A stretch of 64,000 bases of DNA from Bacteroidales bacterium UBA1184 (GTDB lineage Bacteria; Bacteroidota; Bacteroidia; Bacteroidales; ML635J-15): positions 1,462 to 65,461 of the forward strand of contig DBYO01000032.1 in assembly GCA_002310235.1 (NCBI GenBank), given 5' to 3'. Positions 27,090 through 52,094 of the stretch are shown piece by piece; within the stretch, counting starts at the first letter, position 1, and each line of letters begins with the position of its first letter. The notes under the pieces were generated by a model that made no database searches, was not told the origin of the DNA, and was given only the letters and a program-made list of their open reading frames with translations. A program made the position numbers and the translations under genes.

Positions 27090-28199
27090 TTACCTTATGC
27101 AGTTGGCGTATATGTCGAGAAATATTTCACGCAATAGTTTTCTGTCCAAGTCTTTGTACTCATCAATCCAATTCATGTACTGTACGAATTGATTTTTTTG
27201 TTCGTCGGTATAGTGACATGCGTATTTTGTTTCCCCGCTGCGTATGTCGTGTGCTATATAGTTATTTGGATTTATTGCATAGTTTGAGTTTATCTGCTTG
27301 TCAATATGTTCTGCAATGTTCGAGAAAAAGTTGCCTTTCAAGCTGTCTATGTGACGTAAGACGTCTTCTGTGAGAGGTTTCCCAATATGGAAGTTTACCT
27401 TTCCTTTGGGTTGTTTAATACCAGTAAGTATGCTATTGATGTCTTCGCCAGGTGCTTTTTTGTATTCTCCGTTGATTTTTGTGTGGTAGAGTTCCAATGT
27501 TTTCAACTTGTCGCAAGGTTCCCATTCGTATGAAACGGTGATTGGTGTAATGTTCATTTCTGCCAACGAAAGAATTTTGTCGTCTCTGCGACTTGACCAG
27601 AACATCTTTATTATGGCAGGGTCGGTAATATCCAGTCCATCCTTTGTGCGTCCGTTGCGTTGTGCTATCCACACAGATTCTTGTTTTTCCGTTATGGAAT
27701 ATCGTATATATTCCGATATGAGCGTCAGATTGTTGTAAAAGTCTTTTCTGTTGCCTCCGCGTTCGATTTTGAACATCTTGTTTACCTTGCCGAAATCGAC
27801 TATAAACGGATGTTGCATTAGGTTGCTACCGAAAGTTATCTGGCAGGTTCTGTGATTTTCCTTTAATAAAAGATATTGCAGCAGCATTGCATCTAAAACT
27901 ATGTCGCGGTGATTTGAAATATAAAGGTATGGTTTGTCTTCTCTAATGTTTTCTATTCCTGTCCATACAAATTGGCTTGTCGTCTTTTTAAGAATTATAT
28001 CTATGCAATCTGATATGATCCCAATTTGGAATTCATAGGTTGTCTTGATTTTTCGCAGTCTTTCTCGAAAAAACTCGACATCTGTTCCTGGCATCAAATA
28101 GTTTACTATTGCTGGAATAATTTCGCTGTCGGCAATACGTTGCATTGCGGCAGGAATATCTTCAGGAGAATAAGGCCTTATATTATCAAACTTTTCCAT
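27090..28199 (-). CDS. PlsC-family (1-acyl-sn-glycerol-3-phosphate-type) acyltransferase
   Basis: HX4D motif in YISNHRDIVLDAM. Downstream WIAQRNGRTKDG block. Last gene of the PKS operon. Confidence 0.7.
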   Translation of the reverse strand: MEKFDNIRPYSPEDIPAAMQRIADSEIIPAIVNYLMPGTDVEFFRERLRKIKTTYEFQIGIISDCIDIILKKTTSQFVWTGIENIREDKPYLYISNHRDIVLDAMLLQYLLLKENHRTCQITFGSNLMQHPFIVDFGKVNKMFKIERGGNRKDFYNNLTLISEYIRYSITEKQESVWIAQRNGRTKDGLDITDPAIIKMFWSSRRDDKILSLAEMNITPITVSYEWEPCDKLKTLELYHTKINGEYKKAPGEDINSILTGIKQPKGKVNFHIGKPLTEDVLRHIDSLKGNFFSNIAEHIDKQINSNYAINPNNYIAHDIRSGETKYACHYTDEQKNQFVQYMNWIDEYKDLDRKLLREIFLDIYANCIR

Positions 28200-29497
28200 T
28201 ATTTTTTTCTTAGGTCAATAAATTTTATTGGTTTACGACTTTTTGCTGGAAAATTTATTTTTTGGATTTCCTCAACTGGAAGAATTTCAATTTGCGGTGC
28301 TACGCGGATGCGTGAGCGGAAACTGTCCTTTAGTTCCTTTACAACATCGAAATCCTGTTCTTCCTTAAGTCCAATCTTTATTGTTACATCATCGGTGCCG
28401 GCTTCGTTTTGCCTTACTTCTATTACATAGTTCTCAACATAATCGGTATTGTCAAGTACATCGTTTATTGCTGGCGGATATAGGGTTGTTCCCTTGAGTT
28501 TTATCATATTGTTCATGCGACCGACAAGAGGGGTGAGTCGGTATGAGTTTCGTCCGCATTTGCACTTGTCAACAATTTTTGCTGCAATGTCGCCTGTGCG
28601 AAAACGAAGCAATGGCATTGCTTCTACTCCTAATGTTGTCACCACAATTTCACCAGGTTGTCCGTCGGGTACAGGCAGACCGTCTTCGCCGATAATTTCA
28701 ACTATGATAAGCTCTGGATGAACATGACCACCCATTCCGTATTCGCACTCCGAGAAGGTTGCGCCCATCTCTGTGGATGAGTAGGTGGCGAACAACTGGA
28801 CATCCCATTTCTCCTTTATTTTCTTGCCCAATAGATTGAGCTCGAAATTCTGGTCGCGCAAACCTTCGCCAATGCCTATAATTCGTCGGATGCTACTGTT
28901 CTTGTAGTCGATGTTGTGTTCCTCGGCATATTGTATGAGTCGAAGTATAAACGATGGCACGCACATTATTGTGTCGGGCTTGATGCGTTTTATCGTGTCC
29001 CATTGCAGTTCGGGAATTCCGTTTCCCACGCGGATAATGCCTACACCAAGTTCACGAAGCCCAAGAAAATATGCAAGTCCTGCCATGAAGCGTTTGTCCA
29101 GAGTTGTCATAAGTTGCACGACATTGCCTTGATGTACATTGGCACATTCAAAAGATTTCTTCTCGTTGTATGCAAGTCGCTGGAGGTCTTTTTCTGAACA
29201 GCCGAATGTCACAGGGTCGCCCAAGGTGCCAGATGTGGTTATGTAGTCGATGATTTTCGATTTCTCGCAGCACAGAAATTCCTCGTTGAACAGTTGAAGG
29301 TCTTTTTTTTCTGTAAAAGGAATTTTCACAAGGTCTTCGATGTGCTTTATCTTATTGATGTTGATGCCGTAGCTTTTGAACATTCGCTGGTAATATGGCG
29401 AATTTGCCTGCAGGTATGCCAATGCTTTGTGCAGCAATTCTTCTTGGAATGCTTTTATTTCTTCAACAGATTTGTATTCTATATCGTTGTTGTTCAT
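28199..29497 (-). CDS. PaaK/coenzyme F390 synthetase-like adenylate-forming CoA ligase
   Basis: P-loop-like TTSGTLGDPVTF, YSSTEMG and RFRTGD blocks typical of the phenylacetate-CoA ligase family. 432 aa. Confidence 0.75.
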   Translation of the reverse strand: MNNNDIEYKSVEEIKAFQEELLHKALAYLQANSPYYQRMFKSYGININKIKHIEDLVKIPFTEKKDLQLFNEEFLCCEKSKIIDYITTSGTLGDPVTFGCSEKDLQRLAYNEKKSFECANVHQGNVVQLMTTLDKRFMAGLAYFLGLRELGVGIIRVGNGIPELQWDTIKRIKPDTIMCVPSFILRLIQYAEEHNIDYKNSSIRRIIGIGEGLRDQNFELNLLGKKIKEKWDVQLFATYSSTEMGATFSECEYGMGGHVHPELIIVEIIGEDGLPVPDGQPGEIVVTTLGVEAMPLLRFRTGDIAAKIVDKCKCGRNSYRLTPLVGRMNNMIKLKGTTLYPPAINDVLDNTDYVENYVIEVRQNEAGTDDVTIKIGLKEEQDFDVVKELKDSFRSRIRVAPQIEILPVEEIQKINFPAKSRKPIKFIDLRKK

Positions 29498-29509
29498 CGT
29501 TAAATGTCA

Positions 29510-30370
29510 TTAATAAATGTTTTCTTTAAGCCATTTCAGAAACTCTTTTTTCCATTGACGGCATTCTTCGCTGCCTTTATCTTCGTTGGCTCCAAATCCG
29601 TGGCCTCCAGTCTTGTATTGTATGTATTTGTGCTTAATATTTTTTGCCGTCAGTGCCGAATCGAGCAGCATTGAGTTGTGATATTCTACAGTAGGGTCGT
29701 CAACGCAGTTTACAATGAATACGGGTGGACAGTCGGCTGGTACATGCAGCTCAAGCGAAAGTGAGTCGCGCATGGTTTGGTCGTTTTGTCTGCGTTCGCT
29801 TAGCAGAGCACGGCGCGAGCGTTTGTGAACGTATGGCGGGTTCATTGTGACAACAGGGTAGATTGGTGCAGCAAACGACGGGCGTTGTTCCTTGCTGCTG
29901 TAACATATTGTTGACATCGACAAATGTCCGCCAGCCGAAAATCCCATTATGCCTACCTTATTCGGTTTGATATGATACTCTTTTGCGTGATTGCGAACCC
30001 ATTTTATTGCTTGCTGTGCATCGTTGAGCATGTCGGGGTACTGATTGCCACTGGATTTGCTTCTGTGATTCCAGAAAAATGCTGAAAAACCTGCAACGCG
30101 GTATTTAAGTACAAAAGCTGAGATGCCGTTCGATTGCAGCCATCTTGCAACGCCATTGCCTTCGGTTTCTTCGGCAAGCCAGAAATAACTTCCTCCAGGA
30201 CAAACAATGACAGCAGTGCCAGTAGTGTTGCTTTCTGATATGTATGGCGTCAATGTCACCTGTTTCCAGTTCTTTGCACCAGTGTCCTGCCATAAAAATA
30301 TTTTCTCTTGTGCGGCAGTTGTTCCGACAAGAAAAATAAGTAGGGTATATAACGCTAGTTTCTTCAACAT
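29510..30370 (-). CDS. secreted alpha/beta hydrolase (esterase/lipase type)
   Basis: Signal MLKKLALYTLLIFLVGTTAAQ. Oxyanion CPGGSY. Nucleophile elbow GFSAGGH. C-terminal GGHGF. Confidence 0.75.
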   Translation of the reverse strand: MLKKLALYTLLIFLVGTTAAQEKIFLWQDTGAKNWKQVTLTPYISESNTTGTAVIVCPGGSYFWLAEETEGNGVARWLQSNGISAFVLKYRVAGFSAFFWNHRSKSSGNQYPDMLNDAQQAIKWVRNHAKEYHIKPNKVGIMGFSAGGHLSMSTICYSSKEQRPSFAAPIYPVVTMNPPYVHKRSRRALLSERRQNDQTMRDSLSLELHVPADCPPVFIVNCVDDPTVEYHNSMLLDSALTAKNIKHKYIQYKTGGHGFGANEDKGSEECRQWKKEFLKWLKENIY

Positions 30371-30732
30371 TATCTTCCCAATATTTTCATAACTTCCTCT
30401 TTCGATAGCTGGCGGTATTTGTGTTGCATGTCGGCAAAAAAGTTCACCTGAAAGTATTCTTCATCGTAGAACGATAGTTTTGAGTTTGTGTTTGGCGTGC
30501 ATTCCAAGTAAACAATATCTTCAAGTTTCAGATTTTTTGCTTCGCATATCTGGTCAGCCAATTTTTTGCCTGCATATGTTACCGATGTGCCCGGGTTTTC
30601 TTGGTACAATTCAGTTACAATTACGTATTTTTTGCCGTCAACATCCCTAATCTTAAGTCCGCATGACGATTCCATATCCCATTCGCCCTTGAAAGGGAAA
30701 ATCTCATCGTAATATTCCTTTGAAACTTTCAT
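30370..30732 (-). CDS. hypothetical cytoplasmic protein (120 aa) inside the PKS operon
   Basis: Intact ORF overlapping the downstream start by 1 nt. No signal peptide and no recognisable motif. Confidence 0.5.
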   Translation of the reverse strand: MKVSKEYYDEIFPFKGEWDMESSCGLKIRDVDGKKYVIVTELYQENPGTSVTYAGKKLADQICEAKNLKLEDIVYLECTPNTNSKLSFYDEEYFQVNFFADMQHKYRQLSKEEVMKILGR

Positions 30733-30741
30733 CGTAGTTAA

Positions 30742-32049
30742 TTAATTTTCAGCTCTTACATTTACATTTCTCTTGCTTCTGTCAACATCGCGGCCAAACG
30801 ACTTGTTTGCCAGCTTCCTGTTACGCGGACGGTATGTACCTTCTTCCATCTCGCGAAGCGCAACATTGCAGAACAGCCTGAACATCTTCGATTCCTGGGT
30901 TTCGGTTGCATAGAAACTCTTCCAAGCGTATTCGTAAACATCCTGCAACTGTTCTGGAGTCATAAGCTTAGGCTGGAAAACAACCTGACCTGCATTGTAG
31001 TGGTTCCAGTCGAAATCGAATATACGACCTTGCCTCAACAAGTCGTCGTAAGCTTTTGTGTGTGGGAAAGGTGTCATTACGGTAAATTCTGCCAAGTCCA
31101 AGTCGATTTCACCAAGGAAATCTATCAATCGCTTGCAATCGTCAACCGACTGGTTGTCGAGACCGAGCAAAATTGTGCCTTCGACACCGATTCCATAGTC
31201 GTGGTATCTCTTTACGCGTTCCTTGATATAATCGGATGTGTCGTAAACAGCCTGATAAACATACCATGCACCAGCTTTGGCTGCCAGGTCAAGCACTTCT
31301 GGGTCGTCTTCGATGGTATGGCTTATCCATTTTTTCTTCAGCGGTGCGATTGCCTTGAAAAGTTCTATTTCCCACTGCTTGTCCTGAGCCAGTGAGTTGT
31401 CAACTATAAACAGTCGGTTGTTGTCGATGCTAGCCATATCCTCAACCACCTTGTCAATTGGACGCGGACGGAACTTACGACCACCAAGATACGACACAGC
31501 ACAAGGATAGCAGCTGAAACGGCATCCTCGGCTTGCGTGGAAAAGGTCAACCATCTGCACGCCCTTGTGGTTGTATAGTTCGCGCTTGTACAAATCGCGG
31601 CGGCAAGGACCTACCGATTCGATTGGCGGCTGGTTGCCCATATAGTTGTATATCTTTTTCAGACAGCCGTTTTTCCAGTCGATGATTACCTGTTCGGAGC
31701 GGCCTTCCGATTCGCCTAGGAATACGCTGTCGACATGGTTTACCATTTCCTCGGCATGAAGCATTGTGGATATTCCTCCAGCAATTACTTTTTTGCCTCG
31801 CTTGTGGTATTCGTCGGCTATCGCCCACCCACGTTTTACCTGTGTTGTTAACATCATCGACAATGCAACAAGGTCGCATTCCTCGTCAAAATCGATTGCT
31901 TCCACATTCTCGTCGGTAAACGAAATGTCAACATATTCGGGGAGGGTGGCAGCAAAGGCTACTGGTCCGTGAGGCGGCAGGTTGAATGTCGTTTGCCCTG
32001 GGAGCTTGTTCCACTTCGGGTATATCAATTTCAGTTTTACAGTATCCAT
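30742..32049 (-). CDS. B12-binding domain-containing radical SAM protein
   Basis: CxxxCxxC in ASRGCRFSCYPCAV. N-terminal Rossmann-like segment with DLVALSMMLTTQ typical of the cobalamin-binding domain of class B radical SAM enzymes. Confidence 0.75.
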   Translation of the reverse strand: MDTVKLKLIYPKWNKLPGQTTFNLPPHGPVAFAATLPEYVDISFTDENVEAIDFDEECDLVALSMMLTTQVKRGWAIADEYHKRGKKVIAGGISTMLHAEEMVNHVDSVFLGESEGRSEQVIIDWKNGCLKKIYNYMGNQPPIESVGPCRRDLYKRELYNHKGVQMVDLFHASRGCRFSCYPCAVSYLGGRKFRPRPIDKVVEDMASIDNNRLFIVDNSLAQDKQWEIELFKAIAPLKKKWISHTIEDDPEVLDLAAKAGAWYVYQAVYDTSDYIKERVKRYHDYGIGVEGTILLGLDNQSVDDCKRLIDFLGEIDLDLAEFTVMTPFPHTKAYDDLLRQGRIFDFDWNHYNAGQVVFQPKLMTPEQLQDVYEYAWKSFYATETQESKMFRLFCNVALREMEEGTYRPRNRKLANKSFGRDVDRSKRNVNVRAEN

Positions 32050-32092: not shown

Positions 32093-35086
32093 TTATTTGC
32101 AATTATTGTAATGTTCGTTGATTTTTTTTACTATCACATTGTGTCCGACTAGAGCTTCGGCGGTTTCGATTGCGGTAAGCGAGACGCCACAGAATCCATG
32201 AATGTTCACGTTTTGTCCCGTCAGGAACAAATTCTTTACCTTGGTTGCAACCGCCATCTGCGAAAGCATCAGATTGCGGCTATCTTTCTGGAAACCATAG
32301 TTCGAGCCTTCCTTGTTTCCGAGAAAATCGCGGATTGTGAGTGGCGATGAGGCAAACGAAAATTCAATGCTTTCCCGGAAGTCTGGATATATTTTCTCCA
32401 TCACATCGAAAACCTTTTCTGTTGTTTCTTTTTTCCATTGCTCGTATTCCTCGCCACGATGCCCAGTTTCGGTATTTTCCCATTTTTTGACATCGGCAAA
32501 ATCCATCAAACTGATAATTGCCATTGTATTCGCAAATTTTCCTTGATTTTTTTCAGGTGGAGTAACATACATTATTCCTTTTGGCCAGTTTATATTATTG
32601 TTGTAATAAAAGTTGGCATGGTTTAGGAATGGGAAGGCATTTTTCTTGAACTTAATGTAAACCTTAAAGCTCGAATTCGATTCGGGAATCAATTTCAATC
32701 GTTTTCTGAAAGCTGCAGGGAATGCGTCGCCACTGATGATTTTCATTAGTACATCGGGGTGAACATCAGAAATATAGCTGTCGGCTACGTAGGATTTGTT
32801 ATTCTTTGTCAGAACCTTTGTGACTGCGTGATCTTCGACCTCAATTTTTGTAACCTCCTCGCTTGAAACGACTGAACCGCCAGCCTCCTCAATGATTTTT
32901 TCCAACATATCGACCATCTGCTGACCGCAGCCCACAAACTGGAATGTTCCTCCAATATGCAAAACGCTTAGCAAAGCATTGAAAAAAGCAGGCGTTGTAT
33001 CTTCCTCACCACCAAAAAGCGGTTTTAGGTAGCAGAGTAATCTTTTTAGTTTTGGATTGTGTATGTATCTGTCTATTAGCTCGTTATATGGAGTAATAAA
33101 ATCTTCACTCAGAGAAGTGAAATTTGGTTCTGTTGACCTTTCGCGTATGTAGAAAAGGTCTTCTTCCTGCGAAAGTTCAAATAGTTTGTCAATGTATAGC
33201 CTAATGTTTTCAGCCTCGTCGGGGAAGATTCCTGAAAGGTATCCAACAAGATTTTCCCTGCCTTTGGGAAGACAATATGTAGCGTTGTCGTCGGCTATGG
33301 TAACTACATCGCTGGCGTTGTAGTCGGTGGGCATAAGGTTCAATTTATCGGCAATGCCAAGATATTCAAAGATTTTGTAGAGGTTTCCGCCTTTGTTGAA
33401 TCCTCCGAATATGTGCATTCCTGTTGCAAATTCAACTCCTTTGCGCCTAATTGTCTGCAAACCGCCACCTATTATGGCATTTTTCTCCAGAACGGTTACC
33501 TTGTAGTTCTCCTTGGCGAGCAAAGCTCCAGTAACAAGACCGCCGAGTCCGCCTCCGATAATCAGCACAGACTTTTGTTCGACAGGTTTGACGAAAGCAT
33601 TGGCCTCAAGCATTTGTCTCTTAATTACATCCTCGCCAAGCAATGCCGAACAAACATTCAATGTCCCGACCATTACGCCAAGTATTCCGTGTGCGTTTAT
33701 ATTTTGTCCCACCAAGTAGAAATTAGGCAACTTTGTCTTGTACGACACACGTCCTGCCAAGCCTAAAGTCAGATCTTTTGCCATACCATACATCGAGCCG
33801 CCAGGCGACAATGTATAGTCGCGGTAGGTAAGGGGAGTTGCCGTGTAATATTCATCAATGTACGACCTTAATCCAGGGAAATCCTTTTCAACGGCATCAA
33901 GTAATTTTTCCGCCTTTGCATGTTTAAACTGCTCGTACGATTCACCTCGTTTACCAATAGTTGTTTGTGCCCATTCCGATAGTTCATCGGCAAGCATATA
34001 GGCGAGTATAACACCACTTCTTGCAAATTCTTGTTCTTTCTCGTGGCAATGGTGCATATACAAATAACCGCGTGGCCAAGTTGTGTCGTCGTAGTTTTCC
34101 ATATCCCACGGTGATTTGCATGAATATCCGTAGAAATTGGTGTTCATATACCGCATTGCACTAGGTTTGAACTTAAGGAAAAGAGAAAATACGGATGGCG
34201 TATTCTTTATTGACTCTATCCTTGAATAGAAAGAAGGTCGCAATTCTTTTCCAGTAAACATCCTGCTCAACTGCATGGGATGCACGTCGGAAATAAATAT
34301 GTCGCCTTCTACCAATTCTCCGTTTTCCAGTTCCACACTGGTTACCGAACCATTGTTGCAATGCGCTCTTACGACACGGCAACCTGTATAAATTTTGCCA
34401 CCGTTTGATTTTATCACTTCGGCAAGAGCCTTTGCTATGTTGTCGCTTCCTCCTACAATCCTAAAAGCGCTTCGGTTGTAAAAATTCGACACGAATGCGT
34501 ATGTGGAAAACGGTGTGCGGTTGCGTTGCGCTGCATATAGCGACATATCGCCCACAAGTACATTACGCAATGTAGGGTCTGATATGACTTCGTCGATTAC
34601 CTCGTTGATGCTTGTTGTGAATAGGCGTAAGTCAAGCTGAGCATTTCTGTCTATACGGTTCAAGTCATAAAAAGGGGACTCCTGTGCAACTGTATCTACA
34701 AGTTGCCAATAGCGGCGAAGATTGTCCTTTTCATTTGGAAATCTTTCTGCCAGACTTTCAATCATCTGTTCGTGTCCGTTTGCTATGGAAAAACGTTCGC
34801 CATTGAGCGATATGGTATTGTACGAACTTGTATCCATACGCGAAACTTCAACCTTGTTCTTGATACCAAGGAAGTTGAAATAGTTTGAAAGCACTTCTCC
34901 ATCATCGAGACTGCCAACAAAATGCATTCCTGTTTCGAACTTTACACCGTTTCGTTGGAAACATTGCAGGCAGCCTCCAATCTGTTTTGCCTGTTCAAGA
35001 ATGGTTACTTCATAGCCGTTTTTTGCTAGAATTACACCTGTGGAAAGTCCACCAAGTCCACTTCCTATGACAATGCATTTTTTCAT
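32093..35086 (-). CDS. tandem fusion of two CrtI/phytoene-desaturase-like FAD-dependent oxidoreductases
   Basis: Two dinucleotide-binding motifs ~510 aa apart: KKCIVIGSGLGGLSTGVILAKNGYEVTILEQ and KSVLIIGGGLGGLVTGALLAKENYKVTVLEKN. Both halves end with a GQN(I/V)N(A/I)HG block. ATG at 35086 gives an ATGA overlap with the upstream gene. Confidence 0.75.
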   Translation of the reverse strand: MKKCIVIGSGLGGLSTGVILAKNGYEVTILEQAKQIGGCLQCFQRNGVKFETGMHFVGSLDDGEVLSNYFNFLGIKNKVEVSRMDTSSYNTISLNGERFSIANGHEQMIESLAERFPNEKDNLRRYWQLVDTVAQESPFYDLNRIDRNAQLDLRLFTTSINEVIDEVISDPTLRNVLVGDMSLYAAQRNRTPFSTYAFVSNFYNRSAFRIVGGSDNIAKALAEVIKSNGGKIYTGCRVVRAHCNNGSVTSVELENGELVEGDIFISDVHPMQLSRMFTGKELRPSFYSRIESIKNTPSVFSLFLKFKPSAMRYMNTNFYGYSCKSPWDMENYDDTTWPRGYLYMHHCHEKEQEFARSGVILAYMLADELSEWAQTTIGKRGESYEQFKHAKAEKLLDAVEKDFPGLRSYIDEYYTATPLTYRDYTLSPGGSMYGMAKDLTLGLAGRVSYKTKLPNFYLVGQNINAHGILGVMVGTLNVCSALLGEDVIKRQMLEANAFVKPVEQKSVLIIGGGLGGLVTGALLAKENYKVTVLEKNAIIGGGLQTIRRKGVEFATGMHIFGGFNKGGNLYKIFEYLGIADKLNLMPTDYNASDVVTIADDNATYCLPKGRENLVGYLSGIFPDEAENIRLYIDKLFELSQEEDLFYIRERSTEPNFTSLSEDFITPYNELIDRYIHNPKLKRLLCYLKPLFGGEEDTTPAFFNALLSVLHIGGTFQFVGCGQQMVDMLEKIIEEAGGSVVSSEEVTKIEVEDHAVTKVLTKNNKSYVADSYISDVHPDVLMKIISGDAFPAAFRKRLKLIPESNSSFKVYIKFKKNAFPFLNHANFYYNNNINWPKGIMYVTPPEKNQGKFANTMAIISLMDFADVKKWENTETGHRGEEYEQWKKETTEKVFDVMEKIYPDFRESIEFSFASSPLTIRDFLGNKEGSNYGFQKDSRNLMLSQMAVATKVKNLFLTGQNVNIHGFCGVSLTAIETAEALVGHNVIVKKINEHYNNCK

Positions 35087-42885: not shown

Positions 42886-43143
42886 TTATTTTGTTCTGTT
42901 CTGTTGGATGAACTCTGCCATCACCTTTACCGACTTGAAAATTTCCTTTCCTTGATTTGGATCCTGCAGTTTTATACCATAGTTCTTTTCCATTAGCACT
43001 ATGAGTTCGAGTGCATCAATTGAGTCAAGTCCAAGACCTTCGCCAAACAGCGATGCGTTTTCATCAATGTCTTCTGGAGTCATGTCTTCGAGGTTCAGTG
43101 CTTCGATAATTTCCTGTTTCAGTTTGTAAATCAATTCGTCCAT
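42886..43143 (-). CDS. acyl carrier protein
   Basis: 85 aa. Phosphopantetheine Ser in GLGLDSIDALELI. Confidence 0.85.
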   Translation of the reverse strand: MDELIYKLKQEIIEALNLEDMTPEDIDENASLFGEGLGLDSIDALELIVLMEKNYGIKLQDPNQGKEIFKSVKVMAEFIQQNRTK

Positions 43144-44826: not shown

Positions 44827-45263
44827 TTTCCGACCTCCCATCTTTTTTTCCATTCCTCGTAGAAATCCGGATTCGTCAATACGAGCTGATAGTTGTTTTT
44901 ATTCATAAAAACCTGAATTGTGCGCCCTGTCACATGAATTTCACCAGTTTCTCTGTTGCGAATTTCATAGTCGAATATGATTTTTGCAGCATCGGTAGGG
45001 CGGTAGGTAATTGTGATTTCGGGTTTCATGCCGTAAATCAACGGTTTCTTGTATTTTATTGAAAGGTCAACTATGGGTTCGAAGAAACCTTTACCGTACA
45101 TCATAAGGTAGCCCAAATCGTATTTCTTGCCAAATTCCTCTCTTGCATCCTCGAAGTAAACCGAGTAGTGCCCGTGCCATACGACACCCATCGAATCTAC
45201 TTCGCTGAAGCGTATTTCAAAAGGTTTGGTTACCGATAATATCTTTTCCTTTCCCATAGTCAT
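44823..45263 (-). CDS. 4HBT/YbgC-type hotdog acyl-CoA/ACP thioesterase
   Basis: FEIRFSEVDSMGVVWHGHYSVYFEDAREEF is the canonical 4HBT N-terminal block with catalytic Asp. Confidence 0.8.
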   Translation of the reverse strand: MTMGKEKILSVTKPFEIRFSEVDSMGVVWHGHYSVYFEDAREEFGKKYDLGYLMMYGKGFFEPIVDLSIKYKKPLIYGMKPEITITYRPTDAAKIIFDYEIRNRETGEIHVTGRTIQVFMNKNNYQLVLTNPDFYEEWKKRWEVGK

Positions 45264-45709
45264 TAATTTTTTGAGTCAATGTCAGTCAAGGCAATTTTCA
45301 TGTTGGCCTGAACGATTTCTTCGTTGTCGCTGGCGATTACCGCTTCTACCAATGTCATCTGGAAAACTTCTTCCAGCAATTTGATGGTGGTTGTCAGTTT
45401 TTCTCCGACTTTTGGCGTGCGTTCAATGTTCAGGTTGCTTATTGAACCGATAACACCTATTTTAACAGTTTGACCGTGGTTTAGGTTTATGTATCCTATT
45501 CTTGCTGCACAGGTTTGGGCTATGTTTTCAATCAGTCCCGATGCCGAAAGCCGCCCGTCTTCGACGAACAGATTGTCTTCGCGGACAGTGAGTTCAGTTA
45601 TCGAATACACTTCGTCGCTCGATACCAGCCTGTCAATCATTACGAATGGCGGTCTTTGCGGGATAAGTTCTTCTATTGTCAATTCGTCTATTGCTTTCAT
45701 TGTTTCCAA
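45263..45709 (-). CDS. hotdog-fold dehydratase (ApeI/FabA-like)
   Basis: LIPQRPPFVMIDRLV and GLIENIAQT motifs typical of FabA/FabZ-like dehydratases in APE clusters. Confidence 0.75.
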   Translation of the reverse strand: METMKAIDELTIEELIPQRPPFVMIDRLVSSDEVYSITELTVREDNLFVEDGRLSASGLIENIAQTCAARIGYINLNHGQTVKIGVIGSISNLNIERTPKVGEKLTTTIKLLEEVFQMTLVEAVIASDNEEIVQANMKIALTDIDSKN

Positions 45710-46593
45710 AAATCAAAATAGTTGAACCATTGCGTCGGGTATTTCCTGACGATTTCCTCTAGGTTTTCTGCAAAATTCTGTGCCATTTGGCTCATTTGTT
45801 CGCGAATTTTTGCAGTTCTGTCGCATTGGATTTTACGGACGTATGCATGATATTTCTTTGCCGTTTCTTTCATTACGAAAATAGCAAGAACGGATACGTT
45901 TTTTTGTGTCGCCAATGCAAATGCACCTAATGGAAAACGAGCTGTTTCTCCGAAAAAAGTACATTCAGAAGCTTTTTGTGAACCGAAAATGCGGTCGGCA
46001 GGCATACTTATTATTTCTCCGTTGTCGATTGCAGTGTTTAGTGCAAACAGATGCGACATGTCGGCCATCACCGGAATCATGTTCATGTTGTTTTGTGATA
46101 ATATTCTCCGTCTGTTTTCCATGACGGTTGCTGTTTCTCCTCCAAATACCAGTGCATTGAATCTCTTCGCTTTAGGCTTTAGAGAATAACCAGCAATCTC
46201 ATAATTTCCAACATGACTGCTTAGCAGGACAAAACCTTCGGGATGAGTCTCAAGTTCATCCAAATATTCCTGTCCTTCGACAGAAAAATTGTATTTCTTG
46301 CCTGCATATACGCCAAAGCGGTCCAATATTACTTGACCGAAACGAAAATGGTTTGCATAGACTTTGCAAAAAGATTTTAATCGTCCGTATTGGAAACGTT
46401 TGCGGAAGAATGAGTATGTGGCTTTATAACCTTTTCTGCTGAATATCATGTAGAACGGAACAATAAAAACTGCCATAAATCCGTACATTACCCATATTGG
46501 CAATACACGGAACATGCCGATGAGAGAACGTTGCATCCACGGTTGTCCATCGGTTTTCCCTGACCATTCGTTATGTTGCAACTCTTCAGCCAT
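45697..46593 (-). CDS. LpxL/HtrB-family lysophospholipid (lipid A-type) acyltransferase
   Basis: N-terminal TM. HX4E motif in LSSHVGNYEIAG. ~300 aa, as in the PF03279 family. Confidence 0.75.
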   Translation of the reverse strand: MAEELQHNEWSGKTDGQPWMQRSLIGMFRVLPIWVMYGFMAVFIVPFYMIFSRKGYKATYSFFRKRFQYGRLKSFCKVYANHFRFGQVILDRFGVYAGKKYNFSVEGQEYLDELETHPEGFVLLSSHVGNYEIAGYSLKPKAKRFNALVFGGETATVMENRRRILSQNNMNMIPVMADMSHLFALNTAIDNGEIISMPADRIFGSQKASECTFFGETARFPLGAFALATQKNVSVLAIFVMKETAKKYHAYVRKIQCDRTAKIREQMSQMAQNFAENLEEIVRKYPTQWFNYFDFWKQ

Positions 46594-46596
46594 TAT

Positions 46597-46839
46597 TTAG
46601 GCCGTCTTTTGCTCTATATAATCGCAGAACTGACTGAATGTCTTTATGTTAACCATCTCTTCCGTCTTGATCTTGAAGCCGAATTTTCTTTCGACTATTA
46701 CCACGATGTCAACGAAATCGAGGCTGTCGATACCTATATCTTCCTTAAGCCTTGCTTCTGGCTTTATCTTATCTTCTTCAAGTTCAAGATCTTCAATCAA
46801 AAATTCTTTTACTTTTGCTTCTATTTCTTTTCTATCCAT
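46597..46839 (-). CDS. acyl carrier protein
   Basis: 80 aa. DSL-type motif IGIDSLDFVDIV. Confidence 0.85.
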   Translation of the reverse strand: MDRKEIEAKVKEFLIEDLELEEDKIKPEARLKEDIGIDSLDFVDIVVIVERKFGFKIKTEEMVNIKTFSQFCDYIEQKTA

Positions 46840-46843: not shown

Positions 46844-47944
46844 TTATTTATTACGTTTACAAATCATTATACTATGTCCATGACCTAAATTGTCATGTAT
46901 TTTTTCTACTTCCATTCCTGCTTCACGAACAAGTCTTGCCATATCTTCGGAATGATACATTTTGCTGTTGCCATTGGCGATAGCTGTAAAATACAAACTT
47001 GTCATTGTTAGACAAAACGCTGCTGGTTCGTATTTCTGTCTGTCCCAGAATGTTTCCATAATGTAAACACGGCTTTCGTCATCCATTATTTTTGCTGCTC
47101 TTGACAAAATGCTAAGTATTTCATTTTCGCTAAAGCAGTCGAGGAACTGGCTCATCCATATCGCATCGTAGTGCTTGTCGGTAGGGAAGGAGGCTGTTTT
47201 ATCAAGCAGATTTATGCCGTAACCGTCAATGCGTTCTGCACCTTTTTGTCCTGCGGTAAACTTGCGCATCATTTCCAACTGCTGAGGCAAATCCATTATG
47301 GTTACATTCACATTATTATCGTAACCAACGCATTGCAAAGCCCAGCGACCAGTATTTCCGCCAACGTCGAGCAATGTTTTCGGTTTGTTTGAAAAAACTA
47401 TTTCCAAAGCCTGTGAAAACGAGTTGTCTGAGTAGAAATGGTCGAACCCAAACCAACTTTTCTGCACTTGCTCTGGCAACTGCGACAAGCCTTCGTAAAC
47501 TGTCGGCCAGTCGCCGAAATGCTTAAGTCCTGCAGGCTTGCCTTCAAGCAACGACTCTTCGAGTTTGAACCAACCTTCGTAATTTACATCGTGGTTGAAG
47601 TCCATGTTTACTCTTACGAGTTTGTCGGTAAGCAAAAACCAGCCAGTTTTCGATATGCTGAACCTGTCGGTGTCCTTGTCAACTAGCACAGTACCGATGC
47701 ATAGCGATGCTTCCATCAGCACCTTTACAGCGTATGGCGACAAACCTGTAGCCTTTACTATTTCTTCCTGCGTCATTCCGTCGTTGCTATCACGAAGCAA
47801 ATCGAGAATTCCAAACTTTACCATTAGCCTCGATGCTTGGAAAACTATCGGTCCCCATGCAATCCATTCGGCTTGACGCTGAGCTTCGCGTGCAGAAAGT
47901 TGCTCTTTTGTATATTTTTTTTCTAATTCAGGAAATAAGTCCAT
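46844..47944 (-). CDS. class I SAM-dependent (O-)methyltransferase with N-terminal dimerisation-like domain
   Basis: SAM motif I LLDVGGNTGRWA. Acidic loop IMDLP. ~366 aa, like plant/bacterial small-molecule OMTs. Confidence 0.75.
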   Translation of the reverse strand: MDLFPELEKKYTKEQLSAREAQRQAEWIAWGPIVFQASRLMVKFGILDLLRDSNDGMTQEEIVKATGLSPYAVKVLMEASLCIGTVLVDKDTDRFSISKTGWFLLTDKLVRVNMDFNHDVNYEGWFKLEESLLEGKPAGLKHFGDWPTVYEGLSQLPEQVQKSWFGFDHFYSDNSFSQALEIVFSNKPKTLLDVGGNTGRWALQCVGYDNNVNVTIMDLPQQLEMMRKFTAGQKGAERIDGYGINLLDKTASFPTDKHYDAIWMSQFLDCFSENEILSILSRAAKIMDDESRVYIMETFWDRQKYEPAAFCLTMTSLYFTAIANGNSKMYHSEDMARLVREAGMEVEKIHDNLGHGHSIMICKRNK

Positions 47945-47951: not shown

Positions 47952-48515
47952 CTATTTTGCTTTTTTTATAAGTTTAGCCAAGTTTTCTGCCAATTCGCGG
48001 TAAGCCTCTACACGACGGATTTCGTTGCCAAATCCAGCACCTGGAACTCCGTCAACATCGAGAACTGCAATAGGTTCTGCTTGTCCTTTCTTGTAAATTT
48101 CCATTGTGCCATATAGATGCGAATCTCCAGCGCCAAAACCTACAGCGACTGCCAATCCGGTTATGCCGTAGTTAAAGTCTTTCACTTTCATAATAATGGT
48201 GTATTCGGCAGAACTTTCATCGGTTGTAGTCTGAACATCTTTGGTTTCTTCGTCAAGACGTTCTCTGAAGTTGCTTTCTGCTCTTGTAATTTCGGCATCG
48301 TAGTCGCGAACCCAGTCGTCACCACGTTCCTTCAAATAAGCATTTACTTCCTTGCCCTCGATTGTGCTGTTAGTGTAGTCCCAGCGGACAAACATTTTTG
48401 CATTTGACTTTTTAAGTTCAACGAGAGACCCCTTGATAACCGTTACATCTGGTTTTGCTGTTGCTGTTGCTATCCCCGTGAGGATAATTAAAATTGCCAA
48501 TAATGTCTTTTTCAT
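47952..48515 (-). CDS. secreted hypothetical protein inside the PKS operon
   Basis: Signal MKKTLLAILIILTGIATATA. 187 aa, no recognised motif. Confidence 0.5.
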   Translation of the reverse strand: MKKTLLAILIILTGIATATAKPDVTVIKGSLVELKKSNAKMFVRWDYTNSTIEGKEVNAYLKERGDDWVRDYDAEITRAESNFRERLDEETKDVQTTTDESSAEYTIIMKVKDFNYGITGLAVAVGFGAGDSHLYGTMEIYKKGQAEPIAVLDVDGVPGAGFGNEIRRVEAYRELAENLAKLIKKAK

Positions 48516-48540: not shown

Positions 48541-49764
48541 TTATATTTTACGTATTACTAATGCAGAATTTGTGCCACCAAATCCAAATGAATTGGATAG
48601 TATGGTGTTAAGTTTCTTTTCTGTAGCTTTGGTCACAATGTTCAACCCATCGGAATATTCGTCTGGATTTTCGAAGTTTATGTTAGGAGCGATAAAACCG
48701 TTCTGCATCATCAGTATGCAGTAAACTATTTCGCTTGCGCCTGCCATCCAGCATTCGTGTCCGGTCATTGATTTTGTTGATGAGATTGGCGTTTGTATTT
48801 TTCCGAACAGTTGTTTTAATGCCAATGCCTCGAACATGTCGCCTTGAGGTGTCGAAGTTGCGTGAGCGTTTACATAGTCAATGTCTTCAGCTTTTACGCC
48901 AGCTTCTTTTATTGCACGCATCATTGCGCGCATACAACCTTCTTCGCTCGGTTGTGATATGTGGCTTTCGCCGTTTGACGAGAATCCGTATCCGCATACT
49001 TCGGCTAATATTGTGGCTCCACGAGCTATTGCGTGGTCGTAATCTTCGAGTACCAATGCTGCTGCGCCACCGCTTGGAACAAGTCCGTCACGGTTACGGT
49101 CGAATGGGCGGGAGGCTTTTGTTGGCTCGTCTATACGTGTAGAAAAAGCGCTTATACCATCGAAGCTACCCATCGACAGGTAATTGGTTTCTTGTGCACC
49201 ACCGCAAAGTACCATGTCCTGCAGACCATTGCGAATCAATAATGTGCCCAAACCAATTGAGTGAGAGCCACTTGCGCAGGCAGCACTAACGGTCATATTT
49301 ATTCCTTTGAGGTGAAAAATGGTTGACAGGTTCATGGTCACGGTTGAGTTCATCGATTGGAATATTGCAGCGGAGCCAATCAGGGTAGTGTCTTTTTTCT
49401 CCATAGCCATCTCGTGCGATTCGATTACGGCCTTTGCAGATGAATCGTTGCCGAAAATTACGCCAACTTCGTTGTTTTGCAGATAATTTTCATCAATATT
49501 TGCCTGTTGGAATGCTTCAAGTGCGGCTACATATGCGTATTCGCCTTCTTCGGCAAGATACATTCTGAGTTTACGGTCGAGTTTACCCTTAAGTTGTGGC
49601 TTTTCAACTATTCCTGTCAGTGGCGAGCGGTAGCCGTATTCTATGCGTTGTGGATCGATGCCGATGCCAGAACGACCTTCGCGCAATGATGCGGTTACTT
49701 CTTCCTTATTTTTTCCTATGCATGACCAGATGCCTATGCCTGTGATGACTACTCTTCTTGTCAT
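48541..49764 (-). CDS. beta-ketoacyl-ACP synthase (FabB/F-like)
   Basis: Cys in VSAACASGSHSIG. His in NAHATSTPQGD and MTGHECWMAGA. Confidence 0.85.
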   Translation of the reverse strand: MTRRVVITGIGIWSCIGKNKEEVTASLREGRSGIGIDPQRIEYGYRSPLTGIVEKPQLKGKLDRKLRMYLAEEGEYAYVAALEAFQQANIDENYLQNNEVGVIFGNDSSAKAVIESHEMAMEKKDTTLIGSAAIFQSMNSTVTMNLSTIFHLKGINMTVSAACASGSHSIGLGTLLIRNGLQDMVLCGGAQETNYLSMGSFDGISAFSTRIDEPTKASRPFDRNRDGLVPSGGAAALVLEDYDHAIARGATILAEVCGYGFSSNGESHISQPSEEGCMRAMMRAIKEAGVKAEDIDYVNAHATSTPQGDMFEALALKQLFGKIQTPISSTKSMTGHECWMAGASEIVYCILMMQNGFIAPNINFENPDEYSDGLNIVTKATEKKLNTILSNSFGFGGTNSALVIRKI

Positions 49765-49781: not shown

Positions 49782-50510
49782 TTATGTGTATAAGCCTCCG
49801 TTTATTGAAATTACCTGCCCTGTGATATATGCTGCATCGTCGGACGCAAGGAACGATGTCAGACTAGCGACTTCTTCGGGTTTTCCGAAACGGCCCATTG
49901 GTATGAGTTTTTTTAGTTCAGCTTCGTTGAGTCCCTTTGTCATGTCGGTGGAAATGAAGCCAGGTGCGATTGCGTTGACAGTTATTTTTCTAGCAGCAAC
50001 TTCTTGTGCCAAAGCTTTTGTCGCGCCAATGAGGGCTGCTTTTGCTGCCGAATAGTTTGTCTGTCCAGGCAGACCCTTTAGTCCCGACAGCGACGACATG
50101 TTTATGATACGTCCGTTTCTGTGGGTTATCATATCTTTCAATAGTCGGCGAGTGATGTAGAAAAATCCGTTTAGTGTAGTGTCAACAACATTGTTCCATT
50201 CGGTTTCCTGCATGAATATCATGAGGTTGTCTTTTCTGATGCCAGCGTTGTTTACCAGTACCGAAATATATTCGTCGGGATGGGCAGACTGCCACGATTC
50301 CAAAGCAGCTTCGATAGCCTTTGAATCGGCTACGTCGAAGGGGAGGAGTTCTCCGTTTCCGCCAGATTCCTGAACTATTTTCAATGTTTCTTCGGCAGCT
50401 TCCTTGTTTGACTGGTAATTGATTATTACAGCAAAACCGTCTTTAGCGAGGCGTAAGGCAACAGCCCTGCCCAAACCACGTGAAGCACCGGTGATGAGAG
50501 CATATTTCAT
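49782..50510 (-). CDS. 3-oxoacyl-ACP reductase (SDR, FabG-like ketoreductase)
   Basis: TGASRGLGRA cofactor motif. NNAG. Catalytic S...YSAAK. Confidence 0.9.
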   Translation of the reverse strand: MKYALITGASRGLGRAVALRLAKDGFAVIINYQSNKEAAEETLKIVQESGGNGELLPFDVADSKAIEAALESWQSAHPDEYISVLVNNAGIRKDNLMIFMQETEWNNVVDTTLNGFFYITRRLLKDMITHRNGRIINMSSLSGLKGLPGQTNYSAAKAALIGATKALAQEVAARKITVNAIAPGFISTDMTKGLNEAELKKLIPMGRFGKPEEVASLTSFLASDDAAYITGQVISINGGLYT

Positions 50511-52048
50511 TATTTCAGATTCAATTTATTAGTTTTCAAATAGTTTTCTATGTTTGCAATGTCCTTGTAAAATGGAGTGTCCTCGATGAAAAGAGGTACT
50601 ATCTTACGGACTTCTTCATATACTTTGCGCGAAGTAGGACAAAGTTTGTCTGCAATTTTGAGACAATCGGTTGCTTGTGCCAATGCAATGTATTGGATTG
50701 CCATAACTTGGAAGCAGTTTTCTACTACATGCTTGCATATCAAAGCTGTGTTAGTCCCCATGCTTACGATGTCCTGATTGTCGTTGTTGTTCGGGATGCT
50801 GTGGACATAGTTTGGCATTGCAAGTGTCTGGCATTCTGCAGTCGTTGATGTTGCAGTAAAACCACATGCCTGCATTCCGTAGTTCAGACCGAGAGTTCCA
50901 AGGTTGAGGAATGGCGGCAAAATGCCGTTTATTCTGTCGTGGAACAGGTAGTTGAGCTGACGTTCGGATGTCATGGCAAGGCGGACAAGTGCTATTTTTA
51001 CCTTGTCTTCCTCAAGCGAAATATAATCGCCATGGAAGTTGCCACCGTGATAAACATATTGTGATTCGGGGTCAACTATTGGGTTGTCGCATGCCGAGTT
51101 GAGTTCGTCTTCGATTATATTGCGAGCATATTGCAGTGTGTCGTATATGGGACCCAATATCTGAGGAGTACAGCGAAGCGAATAATATGCCTGAACCTTG
51201 TGTTCAAACACTTTTACGTCCTTGTGTCCGTAGTCGTAAAGCTCGTGTGCGCGCTTTTTCATACATTTAGAACCTTCGGCTATTTCACGCATACGGCGAG
51301 CAATTACTTGTTGACCTTCGTGGCGGCGGCATTCGTTTTCTTCTAGTGCCATATAATCGTCGAATGAAGAAGCGATTTCGTTCATCCATACTGCGGCAAG
51401 TGTTGCCCAATCGAGAATATTTTCGGCATATATCTGGTTTACAATGCTAATTCCCGTCATTACGGATGTTCCATTGGTAATAGAAAGTCCTTCGCGAATG
51501 TGAACTTTCAATGGGGTTAACCCGAGTTGCTTCATCACGTCTGAAGATTTGCGCCATTCTCCTTTGTAGTGGACTTCGCCCTCGCCAATGAGACATAATG
51601 CTATGTGTGCCAGTTGTACGAGGTCGCCACTTGCGCCTACGCTGCCGTGCATTGGAATAAATGGGTATATGCCTTCGTTTATGAACGAAATGAGTAGTTT
51701 TGCAACATCGGGATGAACACCGGACCGGCATTGTAATACTGTGCCGAGACGGGCTATCATTGCCGACTTTACATAAATGTCGTCCAATGGTTCTCCTGCA
51801 CCAGTAGCGTGACTGCGAATTATATTGTATTGTAAATCAGAAAGGTATCTGTCGTCAACGCGCCATTGCGCCATAGGACCGAAGCCTGTGTTTATCCCGT
51901 ATATGACTTTTTCTGCAGCAAATTTCTCCAGAAAATGATAGCAGGCATCAACGCGGTCAATCCATTCTTTGGAAATATTGATGTTTTCGGTTGAAAATAG
52001 TATTTTTTCAACCTCATTGAGTGTTAATCTATCAGTAAATATTGTCAT
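50510..52048 (-). CDS. aromatic amino acid ammonia-lyase, flexirubin-type tyrosine ammonia-lyase-like
   Basis: MIO-forming GSVGASGDL. Long blocks (YGINTGFGPMAQWR, LQYNIIRSHATGAG, YHGGNFHGDYISLE, YVHSIPNNNDNQDIVSMGTN) match my recollection of Flavobacterium johnsoniae TAL. No alignment was computed. Confidence 0.8.
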   Translation of the reverse strand: MTIFTDRLTLNEVEKILFSTENINISKEWIDRVDACYHFLEKFAAEKVIYGINTGFGPMAQWRVDDRYLSDLQYNIIRSHATGAGEPLDDIYVKSAMIARLGTVLQCRSGVHPDVAKLLISFINEGIYPFIPMHGSVGASGDLVQLAHIALCLIGEGEVHYKGEWRKSSDVMKQLGLTPLKVHIREGLSITNGTSVMTGISIVNQIYAENILDWATLAAVWMNEIASSFDDYMALEENECRRHEGQQVIARRMREIAEGSKCMKKRAHELYDYGHKDVKVFEHKVQAYYSLRCTPQILGPIYDTLQYARNIIEDELNSACDNPIVDPESQYVYHGGNFHGDYISLEEDKVKIALVRLAMTSERQLNYLFHDRINGILPPFLNLGTLGLNYGMQACGFTATSTTAECQTLAMPNYVHSIPNNNDNQDIVSMGTNTALICKHVVENCFQVMAIQYIALAQATDCLKIADKLCPTSRKVYEEVRKIVPLFIEDTPFYKDIANIENYLKTNKLNLK

Positions 52049-52086
52049 AACAACATTTCTTATGTGTCTAAGAATTTTTAAAACTG

Positions 52087-52094
52087 CAAAGATA
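52087..52094 (-). promoter_or_regulatory. -7 promoter box TATCTTTG for the PKS operon
   Basis: Plus-strand caaagata, 39 nt upstream of the ATG at 52048. Confidence 0.5.

Follow-up and report, generated by a model that had tools for sequence, protein, structure and literature searches.

A probable flexirubin-type aryl-polyene operon in an uncultured rumen Bacteroidales bacterium

What would be made by an operon that starts like a flexirubin cluster, carries the inventory of an aryl-polyene (ape) cluster and has no dialkylresorcinol (DAR) genes beside it? The operon in question runs from position 52048 down to 27090 on the minus strand of a 64-kb stretch of DNA from Bacteroidales bacterium UBA1184 (contig DBYO01000032.1; 64,000 nucleotides, hereinafter the window). 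The initial annotation described a type II polyketide synthase (PKS) aryl-polyene operon with a flexirubin-type tyrosine ammonia-lyase (TAL) start and with lipid, glycosyl and export genes, and this observation is confirmed. Its interpretation, a hybrid outside both textbook classes, is partly supported; 20 of the genes match the order of flexirubin (flx) clusters, which speaks against the hybrid. The region is very probably an intact operon of the flx type, serving to make and export an aryl-polyene membrane pigment in a rumen Bacteroidales bacterium not yet cultured.

Family assignments were made by Pfam and NCBIfam scans, and the flexirubin-specific NCBIfam equivalogs were judged by their curated cutoffs. 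Five proteins of the operon, FlxA, FlxB, FlxJ, LolA2 and FlxY, exceed these cutoffs (Table 1). For sequence comparison, tblastn yielded two complete flx clusters on plasmids, those of Persicobacter psychrovividus (pPP6) and Aureispira anguillae (pAUEa). Twenty of the 25 open reading frames (ORFs) have one-to-one best matches in the Persicobacter and Aureispira clusters, in the same order and with 28–63% identity, and both halves of a 1003-aa fusion protein match FlxV of these clusters. Specifically, the operon is headed by the FlxA TAL, contains the FlxY ligase and a type II PKS core in flx order, and has FlxJ together with a lipid and export module of FlxE, LolA2, FlxT, FlxU and FlxV (orthologues at 28–50% identity). 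One feature of flx clusters is missing: FlxW, a C45/Ntn-hydrolase-type acyltransferase (AT) encoded next to FlxY, gave no tblastn match, either in the window or among the Bacteroidales loci examined.

The ape-type inventory is present as well, namely ketosynthases (KSs) and a chain-length factor (CLF), two acyl carrier proteins (ACPs), a ketoreductase (KR), a pair of dehydratases (DHs), a thioesterase (TE), a methyltransferase, ATs, a glycosyltransferase, a LolA-like protein and an MMPL protein. Every enzyme type listed initially, from the TAL to the PaaK-like ligase, was recovered by Pfam or NCBIfam and by motifs. This inventory does not discriminate, because it is common to ape and flx clusters, and the lipid-anchor and export genes that had been counted as specific to ape are part of every flx cluster examined. 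Proteobacterial ape clusters start from 4-hydroxybenzoate. They would be expected to have a benzoate starter and neither an ammonia-lyase nor a cinnamate-type ligase, whereas the operon has the FlxA TAL and FlxY. To our knowledge, proteobacterial ape clusters are without a TAL, a FlxY-type 4-coumarate-CoA ligase (4CL) or a FlxV-type oxidoreductase. Beyond the inventory given earlier, the operon encodes an MMPL-fused PlsC domain, a double FlxV, a B12-binding radical S-adenosylmethionine (rSAM) protein, an EamA/ArnE-like protein, a signal-peptide α/β-hydrolase, a terminal PlsC-like AT and two ORFs of unassigned function.

The catalytic motifs of the KSs, CLF, ACPs and ATs and the methylidene-imidazolone (MIO) motif are intact across the operon. 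The KS active sites were judged by alignment with E. coli FabF. The MIO motif of FlxA, GASGDL, is at residues 138–143, HX4D/E motifs are present in all three ATs, and both ACPs keep the DS(L/I) serine. FlxU aligns with the Persicobacter and Aureispira FlxU over ~1160 aa at 28–30% identity. The best named NCBIfam matches of FlxT are AglJ, PpgS and ArnC, which are polyprenyl- or dolichyl-phosphate sugar transferases, all well below their cutoffs. The role of FlxJ in flexirubin is C-methylation of the ring. Homologues of ORF4 take the corresponding place in clusters of Prevotella and Muribaculaceae (tblastn; L036, L043, L045–47, L051, L056).

The ligase is one of the two points on which the hybrid reading turns. 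FlxA and FlxY of Chitinophaga pinensis were shown biochemically to be a TAL and a 4CL, respectively (Schoner et al. 2014, PMC3992019). The initial annotation held that activation relies on a PaaK/F390-type ligase instead of a 4CL. This is contradicted by the ORF at 28199–29497, which is FlxY, at 704 bits against a cutoff of 520. A PaaK/F390-type ligase is the canonical flexirubin state, because FlxY is the biochemically shown 4CL of C. pinensis. The C. pinensis protein is itself annotated as ‘coenzyme F390 synthetase-like’, its counterpart Fjoh_1075 of Flavobacterium johnsoniae is annotated as ‘phenylacetate-CoA ligase’, and the identity of FlxY to plant 4CLs is below 12% (PMC3992019). By analogy with C. 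pinensis FlxY, the window protein is probably specific for 4-coumarate. DarA/DarB and a 4CL elsewhere in the genome had been named as a finding that would overturn the hybrid reading; a 4CL is indeed there, inside the operon. Viral-contig scans with FlxY, as a single sequence and as an alignment, returned distant PaaK-like genes only.

The gene arrangement fits a single transcription unit. The ORF listing and gap table give 25 consecutive minus-strand ORFs with spacers of −43 to +43 nt; strand and packing had been described correctly, with a count of 24 that is one short. All six overlaps pointed out before were read directly in the sequence, i.e., ATGA overlaps at 35083–86, 41686–89, 43708–11 and 44823–26 and 1-nt TAATG overlaps at 45263 and 50510, and more overlaps of these kinds occur at 45697–45700, 30370 and 28199. 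One promoter-like region lies upstream of the whole operon, in the 257-nt intergenic region 5’ of flxA. It contains the Bacteroidota −7-type box TATCTTTG, a predicted promoter element, and a TTGACA-16-TATACT match at 52142–52115. The box is where it had been placed, but calling it single slightly overstated the case: a second TAnnTTTG match, TACATTTG, lies at 32080–87 within the 43-nt spacer 5’ of the rSAM gene, which is the largest spacer of the operon. Across the 64-kb window, TAnnTTTG is not enriched (62 matches vs 59.6 expected).

We set the end of the operon at 27090, because the downstream DcuC transporter gene has its own TATCTTTG box (27004–11) and because in a related species (L095/L096) the terminal AT gene directly follows FlxY and is itself followed by opposite-strand genes. 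On the other side, directly 3’ of a BspA-type leucine-rich repeat (LRR) gene (52305–53462), a stem of ~9 bp (AGCATACCA...TGGTATGCT) followed by TTTTTT is found at 52226–52262 on the minus strand; it looks like an intrinsic terminator that would insulate the flx operon from the LRR gene. Inside the operon, terminator-like hairpins show no excess over shuffled sequence. The window flanks carry housekeeping genes, as indicated by Pfam scans of the flanking ORFs.

The real differences from the reference flx clusters are two: FlxW is missing, and the stretch between flxV and flxY has an insert made up of the second, fused FlxV, the B12-rSAM protein, the 120-aa ORF22 and the secreted α/β-hydrolase. 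FlxW adjoins FlxY in C. pinensis, F. johnsoniae, Persicobacter and Aureispira, and this C45 protein is the proposed polyene–DAR ligase. C45 FlxW was not found in the window, in L095/L096 (FlxY 89% identical) or in L083, a distant metagenome-assembled genome (MAG) from yak omasum. The gene that adjoins flxY in all three encodes a secreted α/β-hydrolase, with 67% identity to the window protein in L095/L096 and 47% in L083. The matches listed in a protein search with FlxY are all at least 88% identical to it, and the comparison of cluster tails excludes distant Bacteroidales, e.g., Bacteroides.

A further question is whether the polyene is joined to a DAR at all. DarA, DarB and DarH of a Galbibacter flexirubin locus, where they lie beside the TAL as in F. 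johnsoniae, were used as queries; this locus was reached through a search with Aureispira FlxA, and its DarB scores 664 bits on NF053539 while its DarH matches NF053550. None of the three gave a tblastn match in the 64 kb of the window or in 80 Bacteroidales loci that cover 10 kb on either side of flxA. Likewise, clustering of the ORFs of the 80 loci, with antisense ORFs filtered, gave no recurring KS III or DarA-like family. Pfam scans of the flanking ORFs agree, and the earlier remark that the window has no DarA/DarB-like genes stands.

DarB-like genes do exist in Bacteroidales, and those found are TetR-linked ones on mobile plasmids of Phocaeicola, Prevotella and Bacteroides, with no DarA partner. 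A literature search on darA/darB in Bacteroides or Prevotella yielded nothing pertinent. Pairs of a TetR gene and a StlD/DarB-family KS gene occur on pBACSA01 of Phocaeicola salanitronis (L091:6406–8131), on a plasmid of Prevotella nigrescens F0103 (L090:8379–10149) and on plasmids of B. ovatus and B. faecis. The plasmid KSs score above the StlD/DarB subfamily cutoff and below the DarB-specific one (493 and 480 bits vs 550). The product of such a KS could be a cyclohexanedione rather than a resorcinol, and the TetR–KS pair may be the source of ‘resorcinol’ calls in genome mining of Prevotella and Bacteroides.

The alternative that survives best, which we nevertheless regard as unlikely, is a canonical flexirubin. 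Its polyene acid would form an ester with a 2,5-dialkylresorcinol, and the latter would come from darA/darB (and darH) at another genomic site, as it does in C. pinensis. The whole core of the operon is orthologous to flexirubin genes, StlD/DarB-family KSs are present in Bacteroidales, and dar need not be linked to flx. The initial annotation had assumed that flexirubin pathways normally have DarA/DarB as well, but this does not hold for the cluster itself: in C. pinensis dar (Cpin_6843–6852) and flx (Cpin_1853–1877) are separate loci (PMC3992019), and the flx plasmids of Persicobacter and Aureispira carry no dar genes. Against a DAR ester stand the failure of the three Dar searches, the absence of FlxW here and in two other Bacteroidales lineages, and the nature of the Bacteroidales DarB-like genes, which are plasmid-borne, TetR-linked, without DarA and below the DarB cutoff. 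The absence of FlxW and the DarB-like genes without DarA are suggestive pointers to a DAR-free product, not decisive ones.

For the acceptor of the polyene we lean slightly towards a membrane (glyco)lipid of the aryl-polyene lipid (APEL) type rather than a dialkylresorcinol. This acceptor is favoured because no dar genes were found in the window or the 80 loci, because FlxW is missing, and because a glycosyltransferase family 2 (GT2) protein of the polyprenyl-phosphate type is encoded near an ArnE/F-like protein. The full-length proteobacterial aryl-polyene (APE) product is APE-GalNAc-phosphate-diacylglycerol (bioRxiv 10.1101/2020.12.19.423268). Taken more broadly, anaerobic gut and rumen Bacteroidales may make a DAR-free relative of flexirubin, i.e., a tyrosine-derived methyl-hydroxyphenyl polyene on a (glyco)lipid, with FlxW and dar lost and with secreted α/β-hydrolases (here also the B12-rSAM protein and a duplicated FlxV) instead. 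We put this forward tentatively, giving it somewhat less than an even chance. If true, the DAR-free pigment lipid would represent an undescribed class, made by a bacterial group that is among the most abundant in animal guts.

Several points weigh against a flexirubin-type operon with a lipid acceptor. The absence of dar in cis is uninformative, because the flexirubin producer C. pinensis keeps dar unlinked to flx. The lipid and export genes also occur in true flexirubin producers, which make DAR esters, and hence do not discriminate between acceptors. The esterification roles of FlxW and DarH are proposed in the literature or implied by NCBI naming. Five genes are without an assigned role (ORF4, the second FlxV module, the rSAM gene, ORF22 and the α/β-hydrolase gene). 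In the literature, moreover, we found neither chemistry nor expression results for any anaerobic Bacteroidales flx cluster, and no description of a product.

With a flexirubin-type operon and a lipid acceptor, the pathway would proceed as follows. FlxA would deaminate tyrosine to p-coumarate, and FlxY would convert p-coumarate to p-coumaroyl-CoA. The starter would be extended iteratively with malonyl units on the two ACPs by the ketosynthases FlxC, FlxI and FlxN with their partners FlxO (CLF) and FlxL, while FlxB would reduce and FlxF and FlxS dehydrate, to give a hydroxyphenyl-polyenoyl thioester. FlxJ would methylate the aryl ring. The thioesterase FlxH and the ATs (FlxE, the PlsC domain of FlxU, and ORF25) would release the polyenoyl group or pass it to the acceptor. 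FlxT and the ArnE/F-like protein would supply and flip a polyprenyl-phosphate-linked sugar, and FlxU, through its MMPL part, and LolA2 would carry the pigment to the outer membrane. The sugar-containing lipid acceptor may be assembled partly in the periplasm, the expected compartment of the signal-peptide hydrolase, ORF4 and LolA2. All chemical steps are modelled on C. pinensis FlxA/FlxY and on the Xenorhabdus/E. coli ape system: the first two draw on the biochemistry of orthologues, the remaining ones on homology and the ape/APEL model.

Between flxV and flxY lies a cassette whose content varies. In the window (29510–32049) it holds the B12-rSAM protein, ORF22 and an esterase, whereas in L095 (7717–9987; FlxY 89% identical) it holds a secreted lipase-like 438-aa protein and an esterase. 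The rSAM protein was not found in L095. The 438-aa gene was considered as its orthologue and rejected, as the two have no similarity and the L095 protein, in which a GYSQG motif is present, resembles a secreted lipase. Neither the rSAM protein nor ORF22 has a PDB sequence match; the former belongs to a large generic superfamily in which few 50%-identity clusters are close to it, and an AlphaFold2 model of ORF22 made without an alignment has a mean predicted local distance difference test score of 50 and is unusable. In size, the 90%-identity clusters comprise 150 members for fused FlxV, 1800 for the rSAM protein and 897 for ORF22, and these proteins are common among rumen MAGs.

FlxV itself differs between the two species. 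L095 has a single FlxV module of 506 aa; the N-terminal half of the window fusion (32093–35086) is its orthologue, at 55% identity, the C-terminal half is a diverged second copy, at 32%, and the two halves are 32% identical to each other. Fused FlxV (997–1003 aa) recurs, as a 999-aa form, in the 150 members of its 90% cluster. The fusion is no assembly artefact, because it recurs in these 150 near-identical database members. Accessory genes that differ between species with 89% identical FlxY are typical tailoring variation within a family.

These accessory genes are an argument for a distinct hybrid chemotype, neither flexirubin nor APE in class, with an unusual PaaK-type activation. The second FlxV module, the B12-rSAM protein, ORF22 and an α/β-hydrolase in the place of FlxW are in line with such a chemotype, as is the lack of dar genes in cis. 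However, the PaaK-type ligase is FlxY itself, 20 of the 25 genes follow the flx order, the accessory genes differ even among species that are closely related by FlxY, and genome-mining papers already count clusters of Bacteroidia as members of the flexirubin family. We find no support for a class-breaking hybrid, as the ligase argument is wrong and the argument from dar in cis is uninformative; we consider it quite improbable.

The distribution of its relatives also speaks for a flexirubin-type operon. A genome scan with FlxA was made over species-level genomes, and gene order was inspected in the best 80 loci. The scan confirmed relatives of FlxA in at least 587 species-level genomes. With few exceptions, the best 80 are Bacteroidales/Bacteroidia MAGs sampled from the gut, the rumen, the mouth or related anaerobic habitats; represented are Bacteroides, Prevotella/Hoylesella, Alistipes, Parabacteroides, Muribaculaceae and Paludibacteraceae, with Hoylesella saccharolytica, Prevotella micans, Bacteroides congonensis and Parabacteroides as cultured carriers. 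The flx gene order is kept in most of the 80 loci, across families. A protein search with FlxA gave at least 7,995 clusters at E ≤ 1e-100; among the matches listed, all are at least 74% identical and none is from Flavobacteriia. Proteins identical to those of the window were found in cow-rumen metagenomes and in one Logan run. Genome mining had already found that the flexirubin gene-cluster cloud spans five of six Bacteroidetes classes, Bacteroidia included and only Saprospiria outside (PMC9248904), and that the arylpolyene cluster pBGC-12 of B. xylanisolvens is syntenic with the C. pinensis flexirubin cluster (PMC12940132). The window operon is one ordinary intact member of this family.

About 12 of the 80 loci have a FlxA-type TAL without PKS genes beside it (L011, L012, L013, L016, L019, L021, L022, L027, L031, L034, L069, L084). 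In L012, L016, L019, L022, L034 and L069, several kb 3’ of flxA contain no PKS gene, while a few of the other loci are short contigs whose end lies close behind flxA. In L011–L013, L016 and L019, the TAL gene is followed by a conserved ORF of ~480 aa, whose N-terminus resembles histidyl-tRNA synthetase by eye. The PKS-free FlxA loci may be stand-alone p-coumarate producers. For the TAL BACOVA_01194 of B. ovatus, conversion of tyrosine to p-coumarate in the gut has been reported (reviewed in PMC11418828), and the reaction of FlxA is the one reported for B. ovatus as the entry to 4-ethylphenol formation.

That the window TAL likewise yields mainly free p-coumarate, with the downstream PKS genes silent or irrelevant, is hardly credible: although BACOVA_01194, if it is a FlxA orthologue, and the PKS-free loci, e.g., L012, L016 and L019, give it a precedent, flxA shares 1 nt with flxB at the head of a 25-gene operon in which all catalytic motifs are intact and whose gene order holds across families.

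In other bacteria, aryl-polyene lipids give protection against oxidative stress, and knowing the products of Bacteroidales flx clusters would bear on gut colonisation and host–microbe chemistry. Complete flx clusters, from the TAL to FlxY and including C45 FlxW, lie on the plasmids pPP6 of P. psychrovividus (L086/L088) and pAUEa of A. anguillae (L085/L087), which suggests that the cluster can move horizontally as a unit. Elsewhere in the window, C-terminal Por_Secre_tail domains, a mark of type IX secretion, are present on two proteins, a 1044-aa Amidase_2 protein (20846–23980) and an endonuclease/exonuclease/phosphatase-family protein (4451–5728); the host therefore has a type IX secretion system.

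Table 1. Features of the flx-type operon in order from the upstream region to the last gene (SDR, short-chain dehydrogenase/reductase; SAM, S-adenosylmethionine; TM, transmembrane)
Feature	Position	Strand	Evidence or remark
Bacteroidota −7-type box TATCTTTG (predicted promoter element)	52087..52094	-	39 nt 5’ of flxA ATG; consensus match
FlxA tyrosine ammonia-lyase	50510..52048	-	NF053541 FlxA_rubin_TAL, 836 bits (cutoff 700); Pfam Lyase_aromatic
FlxB SDR ketoreductase	49782..50510	-	NF053542, 411 bits (cutoff 340)
FlxC-type ketosynthase, Cys-His-His	48541..49764	-	Pfam ketoacyl-synt N+C; 63% identity to Persicobacter flx KS
ORF4, 187-aa signal-peptide protein, function not assigned	47952..48515	-	No Pfam/NCBIfam match
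FlxJ-family SAM methyltransferase	46844..47944	-	NF053543, 626 bits (cutoff 560)
ACP 1 (FlxD-type), DSL serine	46597..46839	-	Pfam PP-binding; sequence
FlxE, LpxL-type (lipid A biosynthesis-like) acyltransferase, HVGNYE	45697..46593	-	Pfam Lip_A_acyltrans; 31% identity to Persicobacter FlxE
FlxF hotdog dehydratase (ApeP/FabZ-like)	45263..45700	-	Weak FabZ matches; 37% Persicobacter orthologue; 39% Galbibacter ApeP-like DH
FlxH 4HBT-type thioesterase	44823..45263	-	Pfam 4HBT_2; 50% identity to Persicobacter orthologue
FlxI-type ketosynthase, Cys-His-His present	43708..44826	-	Pfam; orthology; FabF alignment
FlxL, short, KS-N-terminal-like, without catalytic Cys	43157..43711	-	37% identity to Persicobacter FlxL; FabF alignment
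ACP 2 (FlxM-type), DSI serine	42886..43143	-	Profile scans; orthology; motif
FlxN ketosynthase, Cys-His-His present	41686..42885	-	Pfam; orthology; FabF alignment
FlxO, chain-length-factor-like KS homologue, without Cys, His, His	40661..41689	-	Pfam Ketoacyl-synt_2; FabF alignment
EamA/ArnE-ArnF-like four-TM protein	40305..40658	-	Profile scans; in slot of FlxP deacetylase of other flx clusters
LolA2 (FlxQ), flexirubin biosynthesis/transport periplasmic carrier	39704..40303	-	NF053544, 155 bits (cutoff 125)
FlxS hotdog dehydratase (FabA/ApeI-like)	39336..39713	-	Pfam; orthology
FlxT, GT2 of polyprenyl-phosphate sugar synthase type	38600..39349	-	Profile scans; 50% identity to Persicobacter orthologue
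FlxU, 1174-aa MMPL/RND-type transporter fused to PlsC-type acyltransferase	35083..38607	-	Pfam MMPL + Acyltransferase; HQSHLD at aa 899; TM segments
In-frame fusion of two FlxV (CrtI/retinol-saturase-like FAD oxidoreductase) modules, 1003 aa	32093..35086	-	Profile scans; orthology
B12-binding radical SAM protein, lineage-specific accessory	30742..32049	-	Profile scans; motif CRFSCYPC at aa 176
ORF22, 120 aa, function not assigned, lineage-specific	30370..30732	-	No Pfam, NCBIfam or PDB match
Signal-peptide α/β-hydrolase (BD-FAE/esterase family)	29510..30370	-	Pfam; adjoins flxY, where reference clusters have FlxW
FlxY, 4-coumarate-CoA ligase of PaaK fold	28199..29497	-	NF053551, 704 bits (cutoff 520); PDB PaaK matches
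ORF25, PlsC-like acyltransferase, last gene	27090..28199	-	Pfam; HPFIVD at aa 130; 65% orthologue after FlxY in L095/L096

Of the known systems, the proteobacterial ape clusters of E. coli CFT073 and of Xenorhabdus doucetiae (APELs) share with the operon a type II PKS with LpxL/PlsC acyltransferases, a glycosyltransferase, a LolA-like protein and an MMPL protein (bioRxiv 10.1101/2020.12.19.423268). This likeness is one of inventory, with Pfam ApeI-like and ApeP-like matches. The product of the proteobacterial clusters is a membrane-bound methyl-hydroxyphenyl polyene (bioRxiv 10.1101/2020.12.19.423268).

The flx clusters of Flavobacteriia (F. johnsoniae Fjoh_1075–1110, BGC0000838; Galbibacter, L089) have the TAL, KR, KS, ACP, LpxL-like AT, dehydratases, LolA, GT2, MMPL-AT, FlxV and PaaK-type ligase in common with the window operon. 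They differ in that darA, darB, darH and an ABC transporter are embedded beside the TAL, none of which is found in the window or in the 80 Bacteroidales loci.

The flexirubin cluster of C. pinensis, flxA–flxY, corresponds to Cpin_1853–1877 (MIBiG BGC0000839; Schoner et al. 2014, PMC3992019), and its genes run alphabetically, A B C D E F G H I J K L M N O P Q R S T U V W X Y (PMC3992019 Table S4). The order in the window is A B C (ORF4) J D E F H I L M N O (ArnE/F-like) Q S T U V-V (rSAM) (ORF22) (α/β-hydrolase) Y (AT). This comparison is drawn from the published gene table and the orthologous Persicobacter and Aureispira clusters, not from C. pinensis sequences. In both operons FlxA and FlxB are at the start, FlxY is near the end and dar genes are absent from the cluster; between them, KS, ACP, LpxL-like AT, DH, TE, KS, FlxL, ACP, KS, CLF, LolA, DH, GT2, MMPL-acyltransferase and FlxV follow in the same order. 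Other than that, FlxJ is shifted forward in the window operon, which lacks FlxG, the FlxK halogenase, the FlxP deacetylase, FlxR, FlxW (C45) and the FlxX phosphopantetheinyl transferase, and which has ORF4, the ArnE/F-like protein, the second fused FlxV, the B12-rSAM protein, ORF22, the α/β-hydrolase and the terminal PlsC-like AT in addition. The window host, unlike C. pinensis, is a rumen bacterium of strict-anaerobe type.

The loci of gut Bacteroides (B. congonensis and others) share the FlxA-B-C-...-CLF order with the window operon, at 30–68% protein identity. They differ in having the FlxP deacetylase where the window operon has the ArnE/F-like protein. FlxP occupies this slot, ~10 kb 3’ of flxA, in L062, L067, L068, L072–L075 and L078, i.e., in clusters of Bacteroides, Alistipes and Parabacteroides type, and also in C. 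pinensis and Persicobacter. The ArnE/ArnF-like protein that takes its place in the window, together with the polyprenyl-phosphate-type GT2, resembles an Arn-like pathway for lipid-linked aminosugars.

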